The notes under the pieces were generated by a model. The model ran no database searches and was not told where the DNA came from. It saw only the letters and a list, made by a program, of their open reading frames with translations. From IMG/VR virus record IMGVR_UViG_2852300590_000011: a stretch of DNA of 64,000 bases; one strand, 5' to 3'. A program made the translations under genes and the position numbers. Shown here piece by piece: positions 3,726 through 46,913 of the stretch (positions within the stretch are counted from its first letter, which is position 1; each line of letters starts with the position of its first letter). This DNA comes from an uncultured virus (IMG/VR IMGVR_UViG_2852300590_000011). Taxonomy: Duplodnaviria; Heunggongvirae; Uroviricota; Caudoviricetes.

Positions 3726-4193
3726 GTGAACCACCAGGACCCAATTTTTACAATTACTAGCTCTTACTATCTAAACGAAATGCAAAGTGTTGTTTCAGGT
3801 AGGATCGATAAATTTATATCAATCGCACTATTTATCCTTGGTGGTTCTGTTATGGCCTCTTTCTCTAACATGTTCATCATAGGGGCGCTTATTTCAGCGC
3901 TATCAGCAATTCAAATTTTTTGCCAATTTGGTAAACAATCTGACGCCTCTAATGACAGAGCCAAGCAATATTTAGCATTAATGCATGATGCGTCAAAGCT
4001 TACTGAAGAAGAATTACACCAAAAAATAGGCAGCCTATTACAAAGTGACGTATTTGTTTTTGGCTCCTTGTATAATCCCGCGTATAAACGTGCCGCTATT
4101 CACTTAGGATTGCCGGACGATACGAAACTTACAAGGTTTGAGTCTGTAATGGCTTGGCTCGCAGGTGACCTGCCTATTTCCCCACATAATTGA
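3726..4193 (+). CDS. Two-TM membrane protein, SLATT-like topology (moron)
   Basis: Strong RBS, two adjacent hydrophobic helices followed by a helical tail; opposite strand to the pL operon. Confidence 0.7.
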   Translation: MNHQDPIFTITSSYYLNEMQSVVSGRIDKFISIALFILGGSVMASFSNMFIIGALISALSAIQIFCQFGKQSDASNDRAKQYLALMHDASKLTEEELHQKIGSLLQSDVFVFGSLYNPAYKRAAIHLGLPDDTKLTRFESVMAWLAGDLPISPHN

Positions 4194-5446: not shown

Positions 5447-6112
5447 CCAAAAAACCCTTCCAATAATATGTACTCGAGCAGCCATCTCGTTTTTACTGAG
5501 CTGCTCATCTGGGTACTCATCTTTATTAAAGCTTTTAATAATTATTCCGCCATCTGGCTGATAAACTAATATTTTCACCCTCAATAAAACTCCATCACGT
5601 ATTGCGTAAAGATCACCATCACGTATATCTCTCTTACTAATATCCACGGCTACTAAATCACCGCTATTTAATACGGGGTATAGACTATTCCCAATGATTT
5701 TTACTATACGAGCATTATTTGCACTAACGTTATGCTTTCTCAACTCATCTCTGCGAAAAGGATAAGTGTACTCTTCCAGTTCAATTAATTCTGCATTAGC
5801 TCCAGAACCCGCAGATAACTCTATGTCCAACACAGGAATACCAATAAAATCACTGTTATGATACCCAATATCTTCCCATTCTTTGACTTCAAAGTTTGTT
5901 TTAGAACCGTTTTCGTCTGGCGCTCCAAACTGTAACCAGTGAGCAGAGACACCGACTGCATGTGCAATATCTTCAATTTTGCGAGGAAATGCCGTTTGGC
6001 CTGATTCAATTTTTTGAATAGACTGCTGACTAACTCCTACTTTATCCGCTAATTCCGCTTGACTTAAACCCGCTTTTAATCTGGCAGATAACAGTCTTTC
6101 TGCAATCGACAT
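5429..6112 (-). CDS. cI: CI-like repressor (XRE HTH plus S24 peptidase)
   Basis: HTH LSQAELADKVGVSQQSIQKIE; SAG cleavage site; GNSLYP and RVK S24 motifs. Confidence 0.92.
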   Translation of the reverse strand: MSIAERLLSARLKAGLSQAELADKVGVSQQSIQKIESGQTAFPRKIEDIAHAVGVSAHWLQFGAPDENGSKTNFEVKEWEDIGYHNSDFIGIPVLDIELSAGSGANAELIELEEYTYPFRRDELRKHNVSANNARIVKIIGNSLYPVLNSGDLVAVDISKRDIRDGDLYAIRDGVLLRVKILVYQPDGGIIIKSFNKDEYPDEQLSKNEMAARVHIIGRVFWSSRSW

Positions 6113-8729: not shown

Positions 8730-9452
8730 GTGGAGAGAAATAGCATGATGCAAAAAATAATGGAAGTTTCAGTATTACCCATAATGAATCGTGAATTAAC
8801 TATGTCGAGTCGAGAGATTGCCAGTTTAACGGGAAGTAATCATTCCGATGTTAAGCGTTCTGCCGATAGGCTTTTTGTTGCTCAAATTTTAACCCAGCCA
8901 TTGGCTGAGTTCCCTTTTGAACATAACGGCAATCAATATACTGAATATCGTTTTAATAAAAGAGACTCTCTGGTGTTGGTAGCTCGATTGTCACCTCAGT
9001 TCACAGCAAAAATAGTTGATCGCTGGCAGGAATTAGAATCAAAAATGCAGCCAGTCATTCCTCAAACATTACCAGAAGCATTGCGATTAGCAGCAGACTT
9101 AGCAGAAGAAAAACAAAAATTGGAAAGTGAACTGGCGATTGCGACACCTAAGGCTCAGTTTGTTGATAATTATGTTTTATCCCATGGTTCTATGACATTT
9201 CGACAAGTGTGTAAATTACTGCAGGCGAAAGAAACCGATTTTCGTTGTTTTTTAATTGATAAGAAAATTATGTATCGCTTGAATAATACGTTTACGCCTT
9301 ATCAAACTCATGTCGATCTTGGTCGCTTTGAGATAAAAACGGGAACGAACCAAAAAAATAACCACGCTTTTGCACAATCAAGGTTTACTACTAAAGGTGT
9401 GAAGTGGATTGCAGGGTTATGGGCTGAATATAAAGTTGAGGATGAGATTTAA
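8730..9452 (+). CDS. Rha-N/KilAC antirepressor-like protein
   Basis: TMSSREIA, SPQFTAKIVDRWQELE, PQTLPEALRLAAD, RFTTKG..W. Confidence 0.88.
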   Translation: MERNSMMQKIMEVSVLPIMNRELTMSSREIASLTGSNHSDVKRSADRLFVAQILTQPLAEFPFEHNGNQYTEYRFNKRDSLVLVARLSPQFTAKIVDRWQELESKMQPVIPQTLPEALRLAADLAEEKQKLESELAIATPKAQFVDNYVLSHGSMTFRQVCKLLQAKETDFRCFLIDKKIMYRLNNTFTPYQTHVDLGRFEIKTGTNQKNNHAFAQSRFTTKGVKWIAGLWAEYKVEDEI

Positions 9453-11037: not shown

Positions 11038-11245
11038 TTTGCTATCTGAATTTTTCTATGGCTTAATAGCGTCACTGGTTTGGAAGTACAGACCTATTTA
11101 TGTTAGTAAGTTTAAAGTTGTTCCCATTTAGCGTTATCCTCGATACCTCTTCATTGTGAATTCCTTCTAATTAATACCCATAAGTAAAAATACAAAACAA
11201 ACCGCCTATGCCTTATGGCAAATTAAATAAATTAAGGGAAATTCT
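11038..11245 (+). promoter_or_regulatory. cspA-type promoter and long 5' UTR (cold box/thermosensor)
   Basis: TTGC...TGGCTTAAT...GGTTTG..GTACAGACC...GTTATC...GATACC...GCC....GGCA follows the E. coli cspA leader as recalled. Confidence 0.7.
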
Positions 11246-11458
11246 ATGTCTAATACAATGACTGGTACAGTAAAATGGTTTAACGATGATAAAGGTTTTG
11301 GTTTCATCACTCCTAAAGATGGAAGTAAAGATGTATTTGTACATTACTCTGCAATTCAGAGTGATGACTTCAAATCTCTGATGGAAGGCCAAGAAGTTTC
11401 ATTTACCATGGAAAATGGTATGAAAGGCCCAGCAGCAGGCAACGTGGTGGCTCTCTAA
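11246..11458 (+). CDS. csp: Cold-shock protein (CspA family)
   Basis: [15 protein letters not shown] (RNP1) and DVFVHYSAI (RNP2). Confidence 0.96.
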
Positions 11459-11465
11459 AGGCGCT

Positions 11466-11606
11466 ATTACTATTTACCTCTATTTTAAATGCCCTTGTTG
11501 TCGCGGTTCACAATATAGAACATCACAATTTGATGTCACAGTGAACAATCCGCACGGCGCAAAATGTATCTTTTGCAAAAGTGTGATGACAGCTCAAATG
11601 AGTTGA
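11466..11606 (+). CDS. ymcF: YmcF/YnfQ-like cold-shock small protein with ATT start
   Basis: ITIYLYFKCPCCRGSQYRTSQFDVTVNNPHGAKCIFCKSVMTAQMS, 7 nt after the csp stop; no ATG available for the start. Confidence 0.8.
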   Translation: MTIYLYFKCPCCRGSQYRTSQFDVTVNNPHGAKCIFCKSVMTAQMS

Positions 11607-36507: not shown

Positions 36508-37911
36508 ATGAATTTTATATTGAATTGTAAATTCAGATTTTGTCTGTTATTTATTCTATTTCTGAGTTTTCATAGTATTGCGAATGACGATTATAATAAA
36601 AAAAGTAATAATTTAATAACTGAGGCTCAATTGGTTGAGGATCCTACTCTATTATTACGATTATTTATTCCTGCATTAATTAGAAATGATGTAGAAGGTG
36701 TTGGATTATTACTTTCTATTTATGAAAAACAAAAAAAAACAGAAAATGATGAGTTGTTAATATGGGGTAATGCTATTATTTCTCGTAAGAATAAAGACTT
36801 AGATAAGTCAATATCATTATATAGAAGTTTAGTTTCTAGAAATCCTAAATTAGTATTTGCTCGATTACAGTTAGCAATTTCATTATTTGAAAATAAAGAG
36901 AATGAGGCGGCATTAGAACAATTTGATAAACTGAAAAGCGAAAGCTTGAATGATAACATCATTGATATTATTAATAAATATTCCGAATTAATCAATCACC
37001 AGAATGATTGGTCATTTAATGGTGGCATTGTTTATTTAAATGAGTCAAATATTAATAACTCTCCTAAATTAGGTGTTAATGCTGCAAATTGGAAGAGTAC
37101 ATCAAAGCCTGAAAGTGCTGAGGGTTTTTCTTATGTAGGGGTAGCTGAAAAGAAGTTATCGATATATAAAAATTACTTTTCTTTATTGAATATTCGAGGA
37201 AAGGGAAAATATTATTGGGATAACTCTAAATATAATGAAATATCTTCTAGAGTGAAAGTGGGATTGGGATATAAAGATTTAACTAATGAAGTGTTATTTT
37301 TACATTTTGTCGAATACTCATGGAATCCAAATAAAACTCAACAAAATGGTTCTACATTTCATCGTTATTCAAATGCAATTGGAACAGAGGTTGAAATAAA
37401 CAATTGGTTAAATAAGCAATGGAAAAATTCACTTTCAGTTGAGTTATCAAGGCAAAGTTATCATAAGACAAAACTATTGGATGGTAATGTTTATTCTGTA
37501 TCTGATACACTATTGTATATATCAAGTAGTAATCAATATTGGTTTTCTGGAATAGATTTTTATCATAAAGAAGCTAAAAGTAAAGCTAATGCTTTTGATC
37601 GATTCAGTGTCCGTGCAGGTTGGGGGCAAGAATGGTTACAAGGTATTTCTACTCGTTTTCAAGTTGGTTATGCTAAGCGTATTTATCAAGGAGCAATAGC
37701 AGAAGAAAATAATTATTGGGTTCCTGATTTTTATAAAAAACCACAAAAAAATGATGAGTATAGTGTTTATATAACATTGTGGAATAGAAATTTTTATTTT
37801 TATGGAATTACACCAAAAATAACATGGGCATATCAAAAAATAGATAGTAGTAATTTATTTTATAGTTATGATAAAAATAACTTTTATCTTGAGTTTAGTA
37901 AATATTTTTAA
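36508..37911 (+). CDS. Slam/DUF560 outer-membrane translocon (type 11 secretion)
   Basis: Signal peptide, TPR-like RLQLAI.LFEN.E.E.A..QF.KL, NINN motif, LWNR.....GITPK.T, C-terminal FYLEFSKYF beta-signal. Confidence 0.87.
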   Translation: MNFILNCKFRFCLLFILFLSFHSIANDDYNKKSNNLITEAQLVEDPTLLLRLFIPALIRNDVEGVGLLLSIYEKQKKTENDELLIWGNAIISRKNKDLDKSISLYRSLVSRNPKLVFARLQLAISLFENKENEAALEQFDKLKSESLNDNIIDIINKYSELINHQNDWSFNGGIVYLNESNINNSPKLGVNAANWKSTSKPESAEGFSYVGVAEKKLSIYKNYFSLLNIRGKGKYYWDNSKYNEISSRVKVGLGYKDLTNEVLFLHFVEYSWNPNKTQQNGSTFHRYSNAIGTEVEINNWLNKQWKNSLSVELSRQSYHKTKLLDGNVYSVSDTLLYISSSNQYWFSGIDFYHKEAKSKANAFDRFSVRAGWGQEWLQGISTRFQVGYAKRIYQGAIAEENNYWVPDFYKKPQKNDEYSVYITLWNRNFYFYGITPKITWAYQKIDSSNLFYSYDKNNFYLEFSKYF

Positions 37912-39053: not shown

Positions 39054-39426
39054 AAAAAATCATAGTCTAGGTTTATATGGATAAAAATAATTATAATTTT
39101 TTAAGTAATGAGAGTTTTTCACACCATGTATTAAGCGTTTCTCGTTTTTCTCTAAAATAATCATATCTATCATAATGCTTTTGAGAAATTCCTAGTCTTT
39201 TATGGTTTTGTACCATATTCTTAATTCAGAACTTATTCCCATTTTTCTAGCTAATGTTTCGAATACTCACTAAGTCATGTTTACAGCCCTAATTAGTGGT
39301 TATCAAAACCAATAAAAGCATTATGGTAATCAACTAGTTATAAAAATGCATAATCACTGTATTTTAAGTCTATTAAGAGTAAATATGCCTTAATAAACAA
39401 ATAGTTAATAATGGCTGATTTATATA

Positions 39427-39591
39427 ATGCTACGCCACATGGGGTGGACAGAAGCCGCTGACTTAATCATTAAAGGTATGGAAGGCGCGATCGAAGCGAA
39501 GACCGTTACTTATGATTTCGAACGTCTAATGGACGGCGCTAAAATGCTGAAATGTAGCGAGTTTGGTGACGCGATTATCAAACATATGTAA
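39427..39591 (+). pseudogene. icd: icd 3'-end duplicate (att junction, icdC-like)
   Basis: [54 protein letters not shown] is the IDH C-terminus; IHF-consensus AATCAACTAGTTA at 39328-39340. Confidence 0.93.
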
Positions 39592-39749
39592 TTGTTGATT
39601 TGATAAATAGTTAACGGGAGCTTATTAGTTCCCGTTTATTTTTTGTACTACAAAATTCTTCCCCAAAACCCCACCAAAACTATTCCCCAAAACAGTACAA
39701 TTAAAAATGTGGATTATCTGAAGTAATTTCTGGGAACAATGCGTGGTGT

Positions 39750-40166
39750 GTGAACTTAATTGATACTATTCAAGGTAATTCAGCAGAATATGAGCTCTAT
39801 GTATTTGTGAAATCTTCTTATCATATTTCACTTCATCCTCAAAAATGGGGAATTCAAATTTATCATAAAGGTGTTATTACACACGCTTCAAGTCAAAGAC
39901 CGCTTAATTTATTAGAGGGAAATAACTTTGTACTCACAGGAAATAATTGGAATGGCGTGGATGTCGGGTTTCCTTGTGCGGTATTAATCACAACAATAGG
40001 GCATATTGGGATGATGGATTCGATGGGAGGAAAAACAATTAGGATAACTCTTTGTGGACGAGGTAACCGTATTATCCCTCATTCCATGATAGTCTCCGGA
40101 CAGATGTCAACAACCTCACTAGGTAAGCAGTATTTTTATATTGATGTAAGGGAGTATGGTGGGTGA
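39750..40166 (+). pseudogene. Fragment of a tail-fibre accessory gene
   Basis: YELYVFV...KWGIQIY...RPL resembles DIYVCVFV...RWGLSLY in 34672-35214; no 5' part. Confidence 0.55.
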
Positions 40167-40625
40167 TAGAAGAGTTTAGATGGTTAGTTTAGTTATTGAG
40201 TACGAGAGAGCGCTAAAAAAGGATATATTCGTTGGTAGTCGGCTTTGTGCCAAAAACGGGGCTCTGCCAGCTCGTTATTGCCCCATTCCGTGTTTTGGCT
40301 CGTTAGCTTAATCGAAAGTTCCCGCTCCTGCTACCATACAAATTCTTATCTATTTGCCTATGTTTGGTTTTACCAGAAATCGACTAACCGTGTATGGAGA
40401 TACAGCCATATGACTTGAACACAGTATTAGTGCGCACCAATTCCATTCGGAATAAATAAAACTCTATAAAATCAATTAACTATAGAGACTTAGTTTTAGT
40501 TGATAGGTTTAAAAAACGCGCATGCACATTTTTCAAGATGGTGTATTTGGTTGAAAGCTGATAACTTATTTGTATACAGATAGTTAATCATGCGCGTTTT
40601 TATTGGCCTAACGAGTTAAACACAC

Positions 40626-40649
40626 GTGCGCACAAATAAAATATTAGGC
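40626..40649 (+). other. attI-like site
   Basis: GTGCGCACAAATAAAAT-ATTAGGC resembles the recalled AATAAAATGTTRRRY attI end; TTAGGC is complementary to R'' of the next attC. Confidence 0.5.
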
Positions 40650-40694
40650 CTATACAACACGACAGGCTTTAAGAATGTTGTTCCAAATCTTCCG

Positions 40695-40765
40695 GCCTAA
40701 CAAATCGTTCCAGAGGACTCCGAAAAAGCTACGCTTTTTCTCCCCTCTGAACTCATGCGTTATAT
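40695..40765 (+). other. Integron attC site 1 (71 bp)
   Basis: R'' GCCTAAC, L'' GTTCCAG / L' CTGAAC with one extra base, inner stem GAAAAAGC/GCTTTTTC, R' GTTATAT. Confidence 0.8.
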
Positions 40766-40778
40766 TTAAGAGGCTAGC

Positions 40779-41681
40779 TTGAGCGGTATAAAAATAACTT
40801 TTGCTTATGATAGCAATGGTGTTCGTGTGGATGCAGATTCTTATGGGGATCACTCTATAGCTCATCCTCTCGTATGTCCAGATAAAAACTGTGAAGCGTT
40901 TTTGAAGCATGTGAATGGGTATAAGCGTGAAAGCTACGGCAAACAGCAGTTCATCCCTGCTTTTTACCGATTAGAAAAAGGCTCCGATCATAGTGAGTAT
41001 TGCCGTTACAAATCCTCTGGCAGAGATACAATTGTTGCTGGAGAGTCAGATCATGAAGTTAAAGATGCTCTTGCGAAAGGTGAACTATTGTTTCGTATTC
41101 ATGTAATGGATGCGGAAGAAAAGGAAAAACTAAAAGATAAGGCAGGGGTCTTTCAACAGTTTCCACCGAATGATACGACTAAGCGGAAATATAGAAACCA
41201 AGGACGCAGATCTACTTATGTTCGCACGATGAATAGCCTATTGGAAATCTATAATCATGGGCGTCTTAATTCACAAGATAGAGCAAAGATTAGGCTCATT
41301 ATTGGCGGTAAGTTAGTAAAGTGGACAGATTTCTTTTACTCGACCAATCATCTAGGTAGTCTAAAATTGCGCCTTCATCGAGAGGGAATTGTTCAAGCAG
41401 CCGTTGTAGTTAAAGTAAGTATTGTAGGGCTACCAAATCAAAAACTTGGTGGCTTTTGCTTTATAGAGTGCAGCCCCAAGACTACTGGATTAGGTAAACA
41501 TATATACACGACGTTGAAACTAGCTAAGAGCTTACCAAGTAGTCACTTCTCTTTGAATCAAAACATAATGGTTTTAGGCAAATTTTGCATTCCAGAATCA
41601 AGTGACCGTGTTACTCCATCATATTTAGGTAATGAAATCAGGACATTAATAACTCATACACAGCAAGTGGTGGACATTTGA
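40779..41681 (+). CDS. Cassette-borne 300-aa protein with a putative N-terminal Zn ribbon
   Basis: RBS AAGAGG right after attC1; CPDKNC...HSEYC; stop codon abuts attC2. Confidence 0.8.
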   Translation: MSGIKITFAYDSNGVRVDADSYGDHSIAHPLVCPDKNCEAFLKHVNGYKRESYGKQQFIPAFYRLEKGSDHSEYCRYKSSGRDTIVAGESDHEVKDALAKGELLFRIHVMDAEEKEKLKDKAGVFQQFPPNDTTKRKYRNQGRRSTYVRTMNSLLEIYNHGRLNSQDRAKIRLIIGGKLVKWTDFFYSTNHLGSLKLRLHREGIVQAAVVVKVSIVGLPNQKLGGFCFIECSPKTTGLGKHIYTTLKLAKSLPSSHFSLNQNIMVLGKFCIPESSDRVTPSYLGNEIRTLITHTQQVVDI

Positions 41682-41806
41682 GCATAACAAACTCTTCCAG
41701 AGGAATTTCCAACACATGGCATTTTATTGTACGTTGATTTCGGTGATTTCAGTATTATGCGGAAACTTGGTAGTAATGTTGTCAGCCCCTTAGGCGAGCG
41801 TTATCT
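41682..41806 (+). other. Integron attC site 2 (125 bp, Vibrio repeat-like)
   Basis: GCATAACAAA..TTCCAGAGG..TTCCAAC.C.TGGCATTTT...GTTG....CCCCTTA....GCGTTA matches the recalled length and layout of Vibrio chromosomal attC repeats. Confidence 0.78.
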
Positions 41807-42087
41807 CCATAGAAATTTTAATCTGAAACTGACGAGTTAGAGCAAAGGGTCTACCACGCTTTATATGTCCCGAAGCGAGTTAGGGCAATGACCATTATTC
41901 GCTCGCAGCGGACCTTGTGACCTTGAATTTTGTCCTTTCCGTGCCAGGAGCGGACATTTAATGATTCTAAAAACTATGATGTCGCAGCCCAGTTTTGCCG
42001 ACCGTAGCTTGGCAACAAATGACGTGATTGACTATTTTTGTTTAAACAGAGAAGATTTAAGAATAGCCTCTTAAGGAATAGATTCTC

Positions 42088-43074
42088 ATGTTACGAAAAA
42101 GCATTGAAGCTAAGAAGAGACACCATTATGTTTGGGCGAATTACCTAACGCGCTGGGGTAATGGTACAAAAAATGTTTTCTACACAACCAAGACTGGAAA
42201 GATTGCCTGCGACAGTGTACGTGCAATAGCTGCTGACGACTTTTTCTATAAAACAACAACGCTTACTAGCGAGAACGTTGATATAATTAAGGCCTTCTCT
42301 CGAAAAAGCCCCAACCATCTCCATACTCAACACATTTCCTACCTAGATGACGTCCTTAAACTGCAAAGATTAGAGGCTATGTATAGGGCTTCTGGTAAAC
42401 AAGATCAGGAAGCGGAAGCACTTCTTCATGCCACAAAGTGCAACTTAATGGAGAATCTCCATTCATCTCATGAATTGAAGGCATTATCGATATTAGAAGC
42501 GCTCGCAAATGAAAGGCTTGATATACTTCATGATAAACAGCACATGATTGAATTCATGATGTTCTTTGGTCATCAGATTACGCGTACAAAGCCTTTCAGG
42601 GACGCAGTGTTTAATGCTCAGCCTCGTCGTAATAATCTTGAAATAAAAGTATCCGACACGATTGTTCATGCCTGGTGGTTTATAAGCTACATGTTTGGGA
42701 TGAATATTGGCTGGAGTTTATATTCAAGTCGTAATGAAGATATACATTCATTATTGGTAAACGATACCGGGCTACCTTTCATAACATCAGATAATCCAGT
42801 CGCTAACGTTCACTCATGTGTCTTAGAGACAGATTTTATCGCGCCTGAGTATACTGACTTTTACTACCCAATTTCACCACGCATAGCCTACATCATATGT
42901 AATTCAAAACGATTTTCTCCAGGTGTGAACTATATCGATAAAGATACTGTTGAGAAATTAAATATAAAAATTGCAAACCAAGCCATGGTGCATATTATAG
43001 GAAACACAACAAACGCCCTACTACCTTATAAAAAACGCCTGGGTTTAAGATATAAAAAAAGGCCTCTTTTTTAA
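42088..43074 (+). CDS. DUF4238-family protein (candidate anti-phage)
   Basis: N-terminal HHYVW..YL..W and FITSDNPV...YYPISP..A signatures. Confidence 0.82.
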   Translation: MLRKSIEAKKRHHYVWANYLTRWGNGTKNVFYTTKTGKIACDSVRAIAADDFFYKTTTLTSENVDIIKAFSRKSPNHLHTQHISYLDDVLKLQRLEAMYRASGKQDQEAEALLHATKCNLMENLHSSHELKALSILEALANERLDILHDKQHMIEFMMFFGHQITRTKPFRDAVFNAQPRRNNLEIKVSDTIVHAWWFISYMFGMNIGWSLYSSRNEDIHSLLVNDTGLPFITSDNPVANVHSCVLETDFIAPEYTDFYYPISPRIAYIICNSKRFSPGVNYIDKDTVEKLNIKIANQAMVHIIGNTTNALLPYKKRLGLRYKKRPLF

Positions 43075-43356
43075 GATGGTATGTTTTTATATAAAGTTAA
43101 ATATAAGCATCAACCTTAAATTCATTCATCGCAACATTGTACCAATGTCCGCTTATCGCTCAGAGCAGACCTAAAATCGTTCTGAGTGATGAGTGCCAAA
43201 AGATGATATTGCTAACACCGTCATGTGTTGATTAAAAAGGAAAGTGCCAATGCTTTGAAGAAAGTACAAGAAGACAATTTAATGGGGTAGACCAGTAAAC
43301 TAATAACCAATTATCGATTGCTGATCTTACAGAAGCTCACTAAAAGAGTTTGAGTG

Positions 43357-43734
43357 CTAGCGTTGTACAATCCGATCGTTGGAATCCAACCACATTCCAT
43401 CAGACAAATACACCATTTCCCCAGAATCATTTGTTACCTGTAGGTCATGGTAAATTGAAGTAAGTTCGTTTTCGGGCGAAGGCGCAATATCGTCGTTTCC
43501 AAAAATCATATCTTGGTATTGCGACCAGTTTTGGTGAATTTCGAAATACATATCAACATCATAATCCTGCATTCTTAGTTCATCATCTGAAGTTATATTC
43601 AACGTCTTTTTGAGACCGATAATGTTAAAAATCCATTTCTTACCACTTTTAATGAAGTATGCTCCCGTGTAAGCCTCTTGGTCTGGTACTGCCTCATAAC
43701 CTAAACTCAAAGATAACTGTATCTGTTCTGCCAA
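43357..43734 (-). CDS. Hypothetical acidic protein (start uncertain)
   Basis: Frame open upstream (..YGWKKPFTLAEQ) but has no ATG; C-terminal YLSDGMWL. Confidence 0.55.
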   Translation of the reverse strand: MAEQIQLSLSLGYEAVPDQEAYTGAYFIKSGKKWIFNIIGLKKTLNITSDDELRMQDYDVDMYFEIHQNWSQYQDMIFGNDDIAPSPENELTSIYHDLQVTNDSGEMVYLSDGMWLDSNDRIVQR

Positions 43735-44235
43735 TGTAAAGGGCTTTTTCCATCCATACTTGTTTACCTGTTTACTGTACGAAAACGATATAATAAAGCA
43801 TTATTGATAACCATGACCTAAGTAAACTTAACTAAATATGTATTATAAGGTCATTTATTCCCAGAATAAGATCCACTCCTTTCTCAAAGCTGATAATCAG
43901 ATTTAATCTATTGCATAATAAATTGTTATTTTGTTTTTTTTAAATATTCACTACATTAGTATAGTGAAAAATATTCAAATTAAATAAAAATCCCTAATTT
44001 ATTTTCAGTGTGAATTATTTTAATTAAATTTTTACTTTCTATTATTTAATATAAATCATAGGTTTGAATGCTTGATATCAAGCTTGATAAGCACTCAATC
44101 ATTAAAGTATCTTCCCCAAAACCACCCTAATCCAAACTAAAAATCAACCAGTTACATACAAACCAAGATCACATAAAAATTATCACCTCAATAAATATAG
44201 TTTATTTAATAAGTTACCTAATTATTATAGGTATA

Positions 44236-44349
44236 ATGTTACGCCTCATGGGTTAGACAGAAGCCGCTGACTTTATCATTAAAGGTATGGACGGCGCTAA
44301 ATTGCTGAAATGTAGCGAGTTCGGTGACGCGATTATCAAAGATATGTAA
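44236..44349 (+). pseudogene. icd: Second, decayed icd 3'-end duplicate
   Basis: Same sequence as 39427 with an internal TAG and a 51-bp deletion between ATGGA repeats; IHF-consensus AATCAACCAGTTA at 44142-44154. Confidence 0.9.
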
Positions 44350-44645
44350 TTGTTGATTTGATAAATAGTTAACGGTAGCTTATTAGTTCCCGTTTTTTAT
44401 TAATGTTTTTTTACAATAATAAATAACATACTCATATAGAGAATTGTATTTAAATAGCCAAAGTTAGCAAAAGTGAATAAATCTCAACAGACATTAAGCT
44501 AAATATAAAATATGAGTGAATAAACAATAAGGTATTTATTTTGGTGAAAAATATAACAGAAAATAATCTGCAAATGGCATGATAAAGAAGCCGAAGTTTA
44601 TCAATTGCAGATTATCTGATGCTTAAAAATATAACCAAATAAAAA

Positions 44646-45773
44646 TTAACAGGTAATGGTTACCCACTCTTTTCCACGAGTATTGTTATAACGATCAGTT
44701 TGTAAACGTGTGGTATGGCCTAATAAGGCTTGGGTATCAATACCTTGTTTTCGGTATAAACGTTCAGATAAAGAACGTTGCTCATGAAATGTTGCAGGTG
44801 TTCCTTCTCCCCAATCAATATCCGTTTTATTTCTCGCCTTTTTAAAATTAGTCGTTAACGTATTTGCAGTAACTTGTTCGCCACGTTTAGATTGTGAAGT
44901 AGTTCGATGATAATGAACTAAATAATGGCTTACAATACGATCACGACATCGTTCAATAACTTCTTTAAGAGATACATTAATAGCTTGATTACGTAAAGAA
45001 AGTGGTATTGCTACTTTTGATCCTGTTTTACTTTGTATGATGTGCAAATGATCATCCCAAATATCTTGAAAACGCATACGTGAGATATCACTAACTCGCT
45101 GACCCGTCACAATGGCAAGTAGCATTGCATTTCCCATATAACGATGTTGTTTATCGGCAATATCATAAATTTTATGCCATTCATCTAGAGTGAGTCTTTG
45201 GCGCCTGATCCGTGTTCTTGGCCTTTTCGTTGCTAGAGCAGGGTTATATCCGGGAGGAACCTCTCCAGCATGTTGCGCTTCTTTAAAAATATCACTAAAA
45301 ACCGATCTTACAACTTGAGCCATACGCATTTGACCTATTGCTTTGTATTCATCAATAATACTGACTAGATCACGAGTACCTATATTTGCTAATGGATATA
45401 AAGCCAATTTTTGACGCATCAGATCTATAGGTTTTTTCTTTTGTTTATATGTAGCAAGTTTTATCTCACCTTGTGATAAACGTTCTTTTTGAATATTCCA
45501 ATAGCGATCTAACCATGTAGAAACAGAGATAGATTGATCTTTCATAGTAGCAACTCTATCACCAATGATTAAAATTTGGCGTGTTCTTTGTTCTGCTATA
45601 CGGTTATTGGCTTCAAGAGCTATCTGTTTAGCTTGTGCTTCATCATCTCCTAATGAATGAAATTTTCCTGAAATTGGGTGACGGTATCGCCAATATATCT
45701 TTTTCATCCTTGGATGATATATTGAATATAAATTGGGTATATCAATATTCTTTTTATGAAGTCGTCCGCTCAT
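44646..45773 (-). CDS. int: Tyrosine integrase, paralogue of int1
   Basis: Same length (375 aa) and motifs TGQR, HEQRSL, LLGH...Y. Confidence 0.95.
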   Translation of the reverse strand: MSGRLHKKNIDIPNLYSIYHPRMKKIYWRYRHPISGKFHSLGDDEAQAKQIALEANNRIAEQRTRQILIIGDRVATMKDQSISVSTWLDRYWNIQKERLSQGEIKLATYKQKKKPIDLMRQKLALYPLANIGTRDLVSIIDEYKAIGQMRMAQVVRSVFSDIFKEAQHAGEVPPGYNPALATKRPRTRIRRQRLTLDEWHKIYDIADKQHRYMGNAMLLAIVTGQRVSDISRMRFQDIWDDHLHIIQSKTGSKVAIPLSLRNQAINVSLKEVIERCRDRIVSHYLVHYHRTTSQSKRGEQVTANTLTTNFKKARNKTDIDWGEGTPATFHEQRSLSERLYRKQGIDTQALLGHTTRLQTDRYNNTRGKEWVTITC

Positions 45774-46253: not shown

Positions 46254-46913
46254 TTAGAGAGTCTGAATAATTTGTATTACATAACCAATAATTTGATAAT
46301 CATCAGTAAATAATATTGGGGTAAAGGCTGTGTTTAATGAAATTAAATAAAATTGTGGTGGTTCATGGATAAACTTTTTAATAACGATGTCATTAGTAAT
46401 AATATTTTTAGCGATAATTATTTTTCCATATAACTCTATCTTATTCTTGAATGATGGTTCGATAATAACGGTTGAACCTTTAGGGATTGAAGGAAGTGAA
46501 TAGGGGTTTGTCATAGATTCGCCTTGGTAAATTAACCCATATGCTTGTTCAGATACGGGTACTGTTGCACAGCACCAATGCTGAATATCGCTTAATCTTA
46601 ATGTATCGTAACGTGCTTTCCAATCAGCTGCTTGTTCAAGCGTGATAATGGGTATTTTCTTAATATTCACTGTCTTGCGAGTTATAATTAATGCATCTGC
46701 TTCTGATGAGTTTCCCCCGTAAAGTAACCATTCAGGAGAGACTTCAAGGACTTTGGCTAATGCCTGTAAATTTTCTCCATCCGGTTCTGTAACTCGTGTT
46801 TCCCACTTTGTAATAGAAACTCGGCTTACACTTAACATCTTTGCTAGAGCTTCTTGTGTTAATGACAATTGTAAACGGCGTTCTTTAATTCTTATGTGCA
46901 TTTTATTTCTCAT
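46254..46913 (-). CDS. CI-like repressor (HTH plus S24)
   Basis: HTH LTQEALA...VSRVSITKWE; GESM and IKK motifs. Confidence 0.85.
   Translation of the reverse strand: MRNKMHIRIKERRLQLSLTQEALAKMLSVSRVSITKWETRVTEPDGENLQALAKVLEVSPEWLLYGGNSSEADALIITRKTVNIKKIPIITLEQAADWKARYDTLRLSDIQHWCCATVPVSEQAYGLIYQGESMTNPYSLPSIPKGSTVIIEPSFKNKIELYGKIIIAKNIITNDIVIKKFIHEPPQFYLISLNTAFTPILFTDDYQIIGYVIQIIQTL

Follow-up and report, generated by a model that had tools for sequence, protein, structure and literature searches.

Among the described systems closest to the one presented here are the dif (pdif) modules of Acinetobacter plasmids, in which XerC/XerD sites flank resistance and toxin-antitoxin modules. Shufflons, as described in the available parts of two accounts, use sfx sites with the core 5'-GTGCCAA-3', one conserved and one variable arm, and their recombinase Rci has an extra C-terminal domain and only inverts (PMC4176322; PMC11852207). 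Rousset et al. 2022 raise the fast turnover of defence and accessory genes at fixed hotspots and only speculate on the answer; the available portion of their text calls the mechanism of exchange at the Z/fun hotspot of P2-like phages an open question and has no mention of sites (PMC9122126). The hotspot and its cargo are also described, again with no sites mentioned in the part available, in bioRxiv 10.1101/2024.10.15.618418. Here we describe two types of short dyad-symmetric sites, A and B, which delimit three cargo units in a 64,000-nucleotide (nt) stretch of DNA from an uncultured virus of the Caudoviricetes (IMG/VR record IMGVR_UViG_2852300590_000011; this whole stretch is called the window), together with a small candidate recombinase encoded at such sites elsewhere. 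The A/B sites are probably the core sites of a site-specific cassette-exchange system, which in the window lacks a recombinase of its own and is partly decayed.

A literature search, whose coverage excluded supplements, Odegrip et al. 2006 and Nilsson et al. 2004 (Mol Biol Evol 21:1), a likely precedent whose title refers to site-specific recombination, gave no description of the A/B sites or of the small recombinase. Neither is described in the available portions of PMC9122126, 10.1101/2024.10.15.618418, PMC13100340, PMC3448106, PMC6379469 and PMC1904263, and an exact-string literature search with six site strings matched only unrelated work.

The window had been the subject of an earlier prediction made from its letters alone (hereafter the original prediction), in which alternating palindromic repeats of two types were listed and the cargo was divided by them into three units. 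Each site measures 24 nt and consists of a 9-nt arm, a 6-nt centre and the inverted 9-nt arm. The arms follow the consensus GTCYGCTnn / nnAGCRGAC around an asymmetric centre, which is GTGCCA in B and TCGCTC, the inverse of GAGCGA, in A. Strict scans with the two consensus sequences, allowing up to three mismatches and compared with 100 shuffles, delivered one match for A (43147-43170) and two for B (41932-41955 on the plus and 43147-43170 on the minus strand), with 0.00 expected from the shuffles in either case. Since both scans match 43147-43170 on opposite strands, A is close to the reverse complement of B. With the looser scoring applied afterwards six sites are recognized (Table 1), and no comparable match occurs elsewhere in the 64 kb, where the next best places, at 9321, 15319, 20049 and 30110, reach 17-19 of 24-27 letters. 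The start-to-start spacing of 42 nt between A1 and B1 is the commonest in the family (85 of 188 A-B pairs).

Five of the six places listed in the original prediction hold, and so does the layout of three units between repeats. The sixth place, an A plus B pair at about 40320-40385, scores at most 15/24 and is at noise level, because matches inside coding sequence (43464, 43681) score the same. The degenerate B placed at 43191-43210 is a genuine site located 7 nt further left, at 43184. The description of the repeats as hairpins had to be given up: single-stranded units fold at -0.5 to -3.9 kcal/mol (z -1.5 to +0.9 versus shuffles), and positions 8-9 pair with 16-17 as they do in shuffled arms (Watson-Crick pairs 48% vs 40% for B and 35% vs 34% for A). 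Given the weak folding and the chance-level pairing beside the centre, the sites are regarded as dyad-symmetric sites. Intrinsic terminators were ruled out, as the fold is weak and no T run follows the units.

Table 1. Sites, cargo units and neighbouring features of the A/B array in the window
Feature	Position	Strand	Description
Repeat copy 1, 115-nt direct repeat	39529..39643	+	3' end of icd; left limit of 4.7-kb island; 95% identical to 44287-44401
138-aa ORF	39750..40166	+	no Pfam family; backbone common to P. mirabilis H110
Site B0	40238..40261	+	GTCGGCTTT-GTGCCA-AAAACGGGG; left arm 8/9, right arm decayed; left boundary of variable array
Unit 1	40262..41889	+	Shewanella-like non-coding stretch and 300-aa ORF flanked by two attC-like repeats
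300-aa ORF	40779-41681	+	flanked by attC-like repeats at ~40695-40765 and 41682-41805
Site A1	41890..41913	+	GACCATTAT-TCGCTC-GCAGCGGAC; right arm canonical, left arm decayed
A1-B1 spacer, 18 nt	41914..41931	+	CTTGTGACCTTGAATTTT; 16/18 letters as in the spacer of Klebsiella spallanzanii L054
Site B1	41932..41955	+	GTCCTTTCC-GTGCCA-GGAGCGGAC; left boundary of DUF4238 unit
DUF4238 cargo gene, 328 aa	42088..43074	+	PF14022, E 1.9e-17
Site A2	43147..43170	+	GTCCGCTTA-TCGCTC-AGAGCAGAC; right boundary of DUF4238 unit
Site B2	43184..43207	+	GAGTGATGA-GTGCCA-AAAGATGAT; 17/24; centre intact, both arms decayed; A2-B2 spacer shortened to 13 nt
125-aa cargo ORF	43357..43734	-	no family found (Pfam, NCBIfam, PADLOC)
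Site A3	43871..43894	+	ATCCACTCC-TTTCTC-AAAGCTGAT; decayed; right boundary of variable array
Repeat copy 2, 115-nt direct repeat	44287..44401	+	3' end of icd; attachment-site border of adjoining lambda-like prophage
Lambda-type integrase of adjoining prophage	44646..45773	-	Arm-DNA-bind_1, Phage_integrase
cI-like repressor gene of adjoining prophage	46254-46913	-	right of integrase
aa, amino acids; ORF, open reading frame.

The original prediction named as a test whether gene gain and loss between strains break at the repeats. Breaks were found there, and they fall inside the repeats. Opposite B0, Proteus mirabilis H110 (L003 14035-14058; loci bear L numbers) has the left flank and the left arm in common with the window and differs from the centre rightwards. 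Opposite A3 (L003 17481-17504) the right arm AAAGCTGA and the right flank are common, the left arm and the upstream DNA differ, and homology to L003 resumes at 43868. In place of the three units of the window, the H110 slot (L003 12806-17477) contains an element of the IS3 family of insertion sequences (IS) together with a helicase of 705 aa and a DUF2290 protein of 239 aa; the helicase and the DUF2290 protein both match candidate-defence families of PADLOC. The DUF4238 unit recurs in the Klebsiella pneumoniae IncF plasmid NZ_CP077808.1, where it is 95.9% identical over 1230 nt and bounded by the same two sites, the homology starting at 41941, inside B1, and running to the final base of A2 (43170). 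Of the two arms of B in the plasmid copy the outer one has diverged more, and no target-site duplication was seen there. Other mosaic breakpoints of Klebsiella IncF plasmids lie at two B-type sites.

The same division of the sites is seen in phages. In three phage backbones, which carry 36 different cargos, B keeps the left arm of the backbone (GTCCGCTCT in 20 of the 23 distinct rows of one, GTCCGCTTT in 8/8 and 5/5 of the other two), and its right arm varies from cargo to cargo. At the two leading positions of this right arm 7, 4 and 5 states occur in the three backbones, tracking the cargo, and a cargo present in two backbones keeps its right arm (L190/L225, L169/L217). Comparison of A sites at ten loci of one phage group, chosen for a common right flank, showed nine loci identical from the centre rightwards with unrelated left arms and upstream DNA; in the tenth the break comes at the next B or ahead of it. 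Among 322 B and 98 A sites, counts of pairs, which are phylogenetically non-independent, gave an identical right-arm dinucleotide in 84% and an identical left-arm dinucleotide in 16% of the 204 A pairs with the same right and a different left flank (backgrounds 20% and 17%), and among the 579 B pairs with the same left flank an identical left-arm dinucleotide in 62% and an identical right-arm dinucleotide in 26% (backgrounds 32% and 14%). The 168 viral units comprise 107 with the centre GTGCCA and 54 with GAGCGA, with GAGCCA and GTGCGA absent. A serine recombinase crossing over at the central GC would leave half-and-half centres; this reading was rejected, hybrids amounting to 0 of 168 viral and 1 of 74 enteric units. 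One junction core, comprising A centre, right arm, spacer, and left arm and centre of B, is flanked left and right by differing cargos in L145, L146 and L162. Breakpoints inside the sites argue against IS ends.

The original prediction also proposed a search for a co-occurring recombinase. A 200-aa candidate was found at such sites elsewhere, and none of its family in the window. RefSeq annotates a 200-aa 'site-specific integrase' beside the sites of an E. coli island (L146); the copies in this island, in Phytobacter (L050) and in a viral contig (L162) are 94-95% identical, and a homologue in an alphaproteobacterial metagenome-assembled genome (MAG; L060) shares 55% identity. The site motif had been the sole basis for choosing these four loci. 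A search of viral contigs with the recombinase delivered 68 loci, 49 of which were examined and reduced to 29 distinct ones by removal of identical flanks. All ten full-length viral copies with at least 83% identity and both flanks are preceded by an A-type site, which ends 40-43 nt before the gene, and followed by a GTGCCA site, which starts 19-21 nt after it. The gene-side arms of these two sites are the same throughout (ATAAGGGAC-like and AGCAGCCCT), and variation is confined to the outer arms. At 11 of 12 loci the gene thus takes the place of the spacer in an A-B junction, and B..A units were detected on each side in nine of those 11. Homologues at 60-66% identity come with different centres, three of them with CGGCCA and one with the inverse of GGGTCA, and the alphaproteobacterial homologue is flanked by the local site types. 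In the viral contigs L325-L328 only the last 39 recombinase codons are left, directly before B (about 4001-4117), representing decayed recombinase-bearing junctions.

Among 26 sequences of 55-95% identity there is no variation at residues R51, K79, H148, R151, H174 and Y183; with the catalytic series R-K-H-x-x-R-H-Y and the catalytic-domain fold the protein has the features of a simple tyrosine recombinase (Xer/Cre/IntI-like). The copy of L050 matches PF00589. A structure model (predicted local distance difference test, pLDDT, 81.3) gave XerA 5hxy as best Foldseek match (E 3.3e-8, template-modelling score, TM, 0.70), followed by XerH, IntI4 and Cre. The NCBIfam match is weak and Xer-like (58 bits vs a cut-off of 220), and a sequence search of the PDB gave no match at E <= 0.001. 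The recombinase unit was found in 904 of the 5426 complete E. coli genomes, its sole annotation there being 'site-specific integrase', and the family is very large and bears generic names only. Among the site-bearing genomes (G numbers) G002 has the complete gene and G003 a copy with a single in-frame TGA, and a remnant is left in G006. Clustering of 876 ORFs from 80 genome loci revealed no recurring recombinase; the largest cluster (28 ORFs from 15 loci) consists of ABC substrate-binding proteins.

The family of sites is widespread. A 23-letter B pattern occurs in at least 134 stretches of one-genome-per-species contigs, with an estimated chance expectation of about 9, and in at least 123 viral contigs; a junction query matched in 516 of the 5426 complete E. 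coli genomes. The perfect-arm pattern is present in 9, 9 and 11 copies in three enteric genomes and in 35 copies in an alphaproteobacterial MAG of 3 Mb (reversed control 0-3), with no copy in P. mirabilis H110. In Enterobacterales (89 ORFs at nine loci scanned) and in viral contigs the sites frame accessory genes. Viral arrays have the form B..A-B..A-B..A with a partly conserved spacer and an A-to-B spacing of mostly 42 nt start to start. The 81 distinct B..A units of 367-4977 nt contain 136 ORFs in 100 clusters, their orientation relative to the B-to-A direction being mixed (76 ORFs vs 60). Pfam families at E <= 1e-6 were sought in 91 of the 100 cluster representatives. Cargo of anti-phage type includes reverse transcriptases with SLATT or AAA_15, TIR, YobI NTPase, AAA_13, Mrr, patatin, DprA, DUF3800 and DUF6650; metabolic and regulator genes were also found, and no transposase or recombinase family among the 91 representatives.

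The Z/fun hotspot is such a slot. In phage P2 and two P2-like prophages of E. coli, B lies to the left and A to the right of the anti-phage cargo between the tail-fibre assembly gene G and the sheath gene FI, and the cargo families are defence-like. The order is backbone-B-cargo-A(-B-cargo-A)-backbone, with an A-B junction between two cargos. The slot of Salmonella phage STYP1 is empty and has no sites. Compared with it, phage P2 (L149) has about 62 nt extra before B (324-385) and about 70 nt after A (2008-2080), stretches that hold repeated CTGACA / TGTCAG motifs in inverted symmetry. The motif TGGCACAG(A/G)GTA is located 12-31 nt upstream of the boundary B in three phage backbones (L151, L154, L150 and relatives); TGGCAC in this position is the reverse complement of the B centre and possibly represents a decayed inverted unit, in which case the left edge of the array may once have been a full junction.

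MAGs of Alpha- and Betaproteobacteria (L004, L017, L020, L076, L082 and others) harbor three unit types, with the centres GGGTCA, C-rich (e.g. ACCCCC) and GTGCCA. The units are grouped in doublets (45 nt) and triplets (91 nt), the linkers being conserved in part and starting ATGTGCAG, and they are often placed beside paralogous ABC substrate-binding genes. The two arms of the alphaproteobacterial sites are near-identical inverted copies.

In the mechanism proposed here, A and B would be double-stranded core sites of a tyrosine-type site-specific recombinase, whose two centre classes do not mix. Cargo genes extend from B to the next A, and adjacent units are joined via an A-spacer-B junction. 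Like sites would recombine, B with B and A with A, within one replicon or between two; cargo units would thereby be replaced, added or removed, and every site would become a hybrid of a scaffold arm and a cargo arm. The enzyme is likely to be the conserved 200-aa recombinase, which has little beyond the catalytic domain and whose gene occupies the spacer position of one A-B junction in some arrays; it is predicted to act on A and B by strand exchange of the tyrosine type, presumably with circular intermediates. The view of the repeats as recombination sites of a cassette system served in trans gains support from the breaks inside the sites and from the candidate enzyme encoded elsewhere. With three decayed sites out of six and no recombinase gene, the window array is considered non-autonomous and probably ageing.

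Several points weigh against this interpretation. No reaction, circle or empty-site product was observed. The recombinase is absent from the window in a tblastn search with the 200-aa protein and was not found in six of nine site-bearing genomes (G004, G005, G007-G010), in the Klebsiella plasmid, in two E. coli chromosomes with P2-type arrays or in an identical viral record of 36 kb. The non-independence of the pair counts has to be kept in mind. The right junction of the DUF4238 unit in NZ_CP077808.1 abuts a truncated GH26 gene, so this copy did not arrive via a clean site-to-site exchange; the plasmid was also rejected as an insertion/empty-site pair, its right flank being a truncated second copy of the glycosyl hydrolase gene. 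The sites of the alpha- and betaproteobacterial MAGs lie between ordinary chromosomal genes, with 35 perfect-stem copies in 3 Mb. This pattern resembles populations of repetitive extragenic palindromic sequences (REP) and bacterial interspersed mosaic elements (BIME), stays unexplained and is hard to reconcile with freely active recombination sites. Finally, with 7+6+7 identical letters per site, a homology-driven process biased towards the centre would be compatible with the sequences taken by themselves.

Modular exchange at short linkers is an old model of phage mosaicism. In these terms A and B would be conserved boundary sequences and cargo exchange would come about by recombination over short homologies or by template switching, through RecA, phage annealing proteins or replication slippage at dyad symmetry, with no dedicated enzyme and with the recombinase gene as a passenger. 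The fact that the recombinase is usually missing from the array-bearing record speaks for such a process, and homologous recombination is considered for the P2 hotspots in the available part of Rousset et al. 2022 (PMC9122126). We nevertheless regard it as unlikely, since the breakpoints cluster in the 6-nt centre (B 20/23, 8/8 and 5/5; A 9/10) and are not spread over the identity blocks of 7, 6 and 7 nt, since the two centre classes remain unmixed, and since the recombinase gene is not placed like cargo (B..A) but in the junction (A..B), at fixed distances and with inner arms of its own, at ten of ten loci.

BIMEs likewise combine two to three alternating types with fixed linkers. The doublets and triplets of the alpha- and betaproteobacterial MAGs, which recur with a period of 45 nt between ordinary genes and reach 35 perfect copies per 3 Mb, would fit intergenic elements of the REP/BIME kind that act structurally or in regulation, at mRNA ends, in protein binding or by insulating cargo from phage operons, and that merely travel with accessory genes or accumulate beside them. 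This explanation is judged quite improbable. The Y1 transposase of REP-associated tyrosine transposases (RAYT; PF01797) scored above the cut-off in only two of nine site-bearing genomes, the five loci around those genes contain no site, and a RAYT/REP link was rejected. Folding is weak, no excess pairing extends beyond the 7-nt arms, no T run follows, and a regulatory role leaves the homology breaks inside the sites unexplained. The outcome named in the original prediction as speaking against recombination sites, namely that the repeats are known REP or IS ends or plain terminators, was checked in part: the repeats are not REPs of the RAYT type, lack a T run and fold weakly. A transposon reading, with B and A as terminal inverted repeats of non-autonomous elements (mobile insertion cassettes, or units like miniature inverted-repeat transposable elements) moved by a DDE transposase encoded elsewhere, is very improbable: B does resemble the reverse complement of A (20/24 in the Klebsiella copy), the DUF4238 unit is common from site to site and the symmetry in phage P2 reaches about 9 nt outward, but transposon ends move whole, whereas here the outer arm stays with the scaffold and the inner arm alone moves, with no target duplication at the Klebsiella copy and no transposase family in the 91 cargo representatives.

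Taken as a cassette-exchange system, the A/B sites share features with each of the described systems. With pdif they have in common short dyad sites, a 6-nt centre, alternating orientation, and discrete modules found in varied contexts and without a recombinase. The A/B geometry of 9-6-9 (11-6-11 with flanks) fits the layout of a XerC arm and a XerD arm around a 6-nt centre. Unlike pdif, the A/B arms are near-identical inverted copies with two centre classes, the units are joined by two sites and a spacer instead of one common site, and some A/B junctions contain a dedicated 200-aa recombinase gene.

The likeness to integrons lies in the arrays of promoter-poor accessory or defence genes (0.4-5 kb), which are set apart by recombination elements having inverted halves and a length of about 66-72 nt, in a tyrosine recombinase beside a half-canonical site, in the many arrays without an enzyme, like clusters of attC sites lacking integron-integrases (CALINs), and in the presence of IntI4 among the best fold matches. 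The differences are the absence of RYYYAAC/GTTRRRY cores from A/B units and spacer, such cores occurring in the passenger attC-like elements of unit 1, the absence of an intI/attI head, with the 200-aa enzyme inside the junction instead, the mixed orientation of the cargo, breakpoints in both junction halves, and conservation of the site sequence and not of structure alone. The array was therefore rejected as an integron cassette array, for which attC cores, intI and co-oriented cassettes are defining.

The B centre GTGCCA, often followed by A, equals the sfx core of shufflons, and of the two sites beside the 200-aa gene each has one canonical and one odd arm, similar to sfx as given in the available parts of the shufflon accounts. 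The right arm of sfx in the same sources differs from nnAGCGGAC, and A/B cargo is replaced between genomes. No invertible segments turned up in A/B arrays, no search having been aimed at inversions; the identity of B centre and sfx core is taken as a lead only. With REP/RAYT the system shares several palindromic unit types, doublets and triplets with fixed linkers, a dispersed intergenic location in alpha- and betaproteobacterial MAGs and an enzyme gene flanked by inverted units. It differs in that the flanked gene codes for a recombinase of the phage-integrase family, not for a Y1 HUH transposase, and in that the unit is common across classes of Proteobacteria and frames cargo in enterics and phages.

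Within the window, positions 40279-40646 of unit 1 are 77-80% identical to unannotated, non-coding stretches of Shewanella plasmids (L002 4001-4390), with four places in one S. putrefaciens plasmid. The cores of the attC-like repeats around the 300-aa ORF were recognized by eye, and the second repeat, of about 120 nt, is in the style of Vibrio repeats. No intI is in view near them, and the only integrase between 34 and 50 kb of the window is the lambda-type one. The 300-aa ORF belongs to no Pfam, NCBIfam or PADLOC family, and none of the three cargo units has a PADLOC match. The attC-flanked ORF resembles an integron cassette stranded inside the unit between B0 and A1. It was proposed that the integron piece was imported as one unit, which is plausible with the attC-flanked ORF inside the B0-A1 unit.

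In the broadest form, which is offered tentatively as a possibility short of a probable one, A and B would belong to a widespread, unnamed cassette system parallel to integrons. A 200-aa tyrosine recombinase, encoded in the junction of two inverted core sites with different centres, would exchange and accumulate accessory and anti-phage genes in phage hotspots (including Z/fun of P2), genomic islands and plasmids of Enterobacterales. Related site types would have multiplied in a REP-like manner in soil Alpha- and Betaproteobacteria, and the window array would be a recombinase-less branch that swallowed a true integron piece. For the turnover of hotspots the A/B sites offer a concrete and testable mechanism, with cargo framed by two incompatible core sites, breakpoints inside them and a candidate enzyme. 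If this mechanism is confirmed, the limits of cargo units would be predictable at nucleotide resolution, which would help in mining new defence genes; the movement of one gene between a Proteus prophage border and a Klebsiella conjugative plasmid would be explained; and a very small recombinase with two heterospecific natural sites would join the known repertoire.

The array is located in a small island at a prophage border, as indicated by the pair of icd repeats followed on the right by the lambda-type integrase and the cI-like repressor. The repeats enclose positions 39644-44286 and match the icd pieces of phage 21 and lambda-like phages; the 3' end of icd serves phages of the 21 type and lambda-like phages as attachment region. 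The integrase was rejected as a candidate enzyme for the A/B sites. To judge from the pair of icd 3' ends and the lambda-like prophage that follows, two elements seem to occupy the icd attachment site in tandem, the left one having been reduced to its cargo. The backbone at 39422-40186 is 95.4% identical to P. mirabilis H110 (L003 12041-12805). The array is whole in 14 sequencing runs (share 1.00), and the share is 0.90-0.91 in six more.

At gathering thresholds Rfam gave nothing at the sites; eight site-rich loci yielded only a tRNA, and the window only the cspA thermoregulator (219 bits), at 11074-11512. In the Klebsiella plasmid L001 a G+C-rich non-coding block beside a B site (5471-5970) is 80% identical to a block of Pantoea brenneri (L069 6805-7250) that also lies beside a B site. 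The 6-kb stretch L001 3500-9500, in which the block of L001 is included, has at least 5000 plasmid matches, several of those listed covering only the 500 nt left of that B site. A gene for a Slam-type surface-lipoprotein assembly protein is present at 36508-37911 of the window, and in Leclercia (L063) a Slam gene follows a TbpB-like ORF at a distance of 0.6-2.8 kb from a B site.

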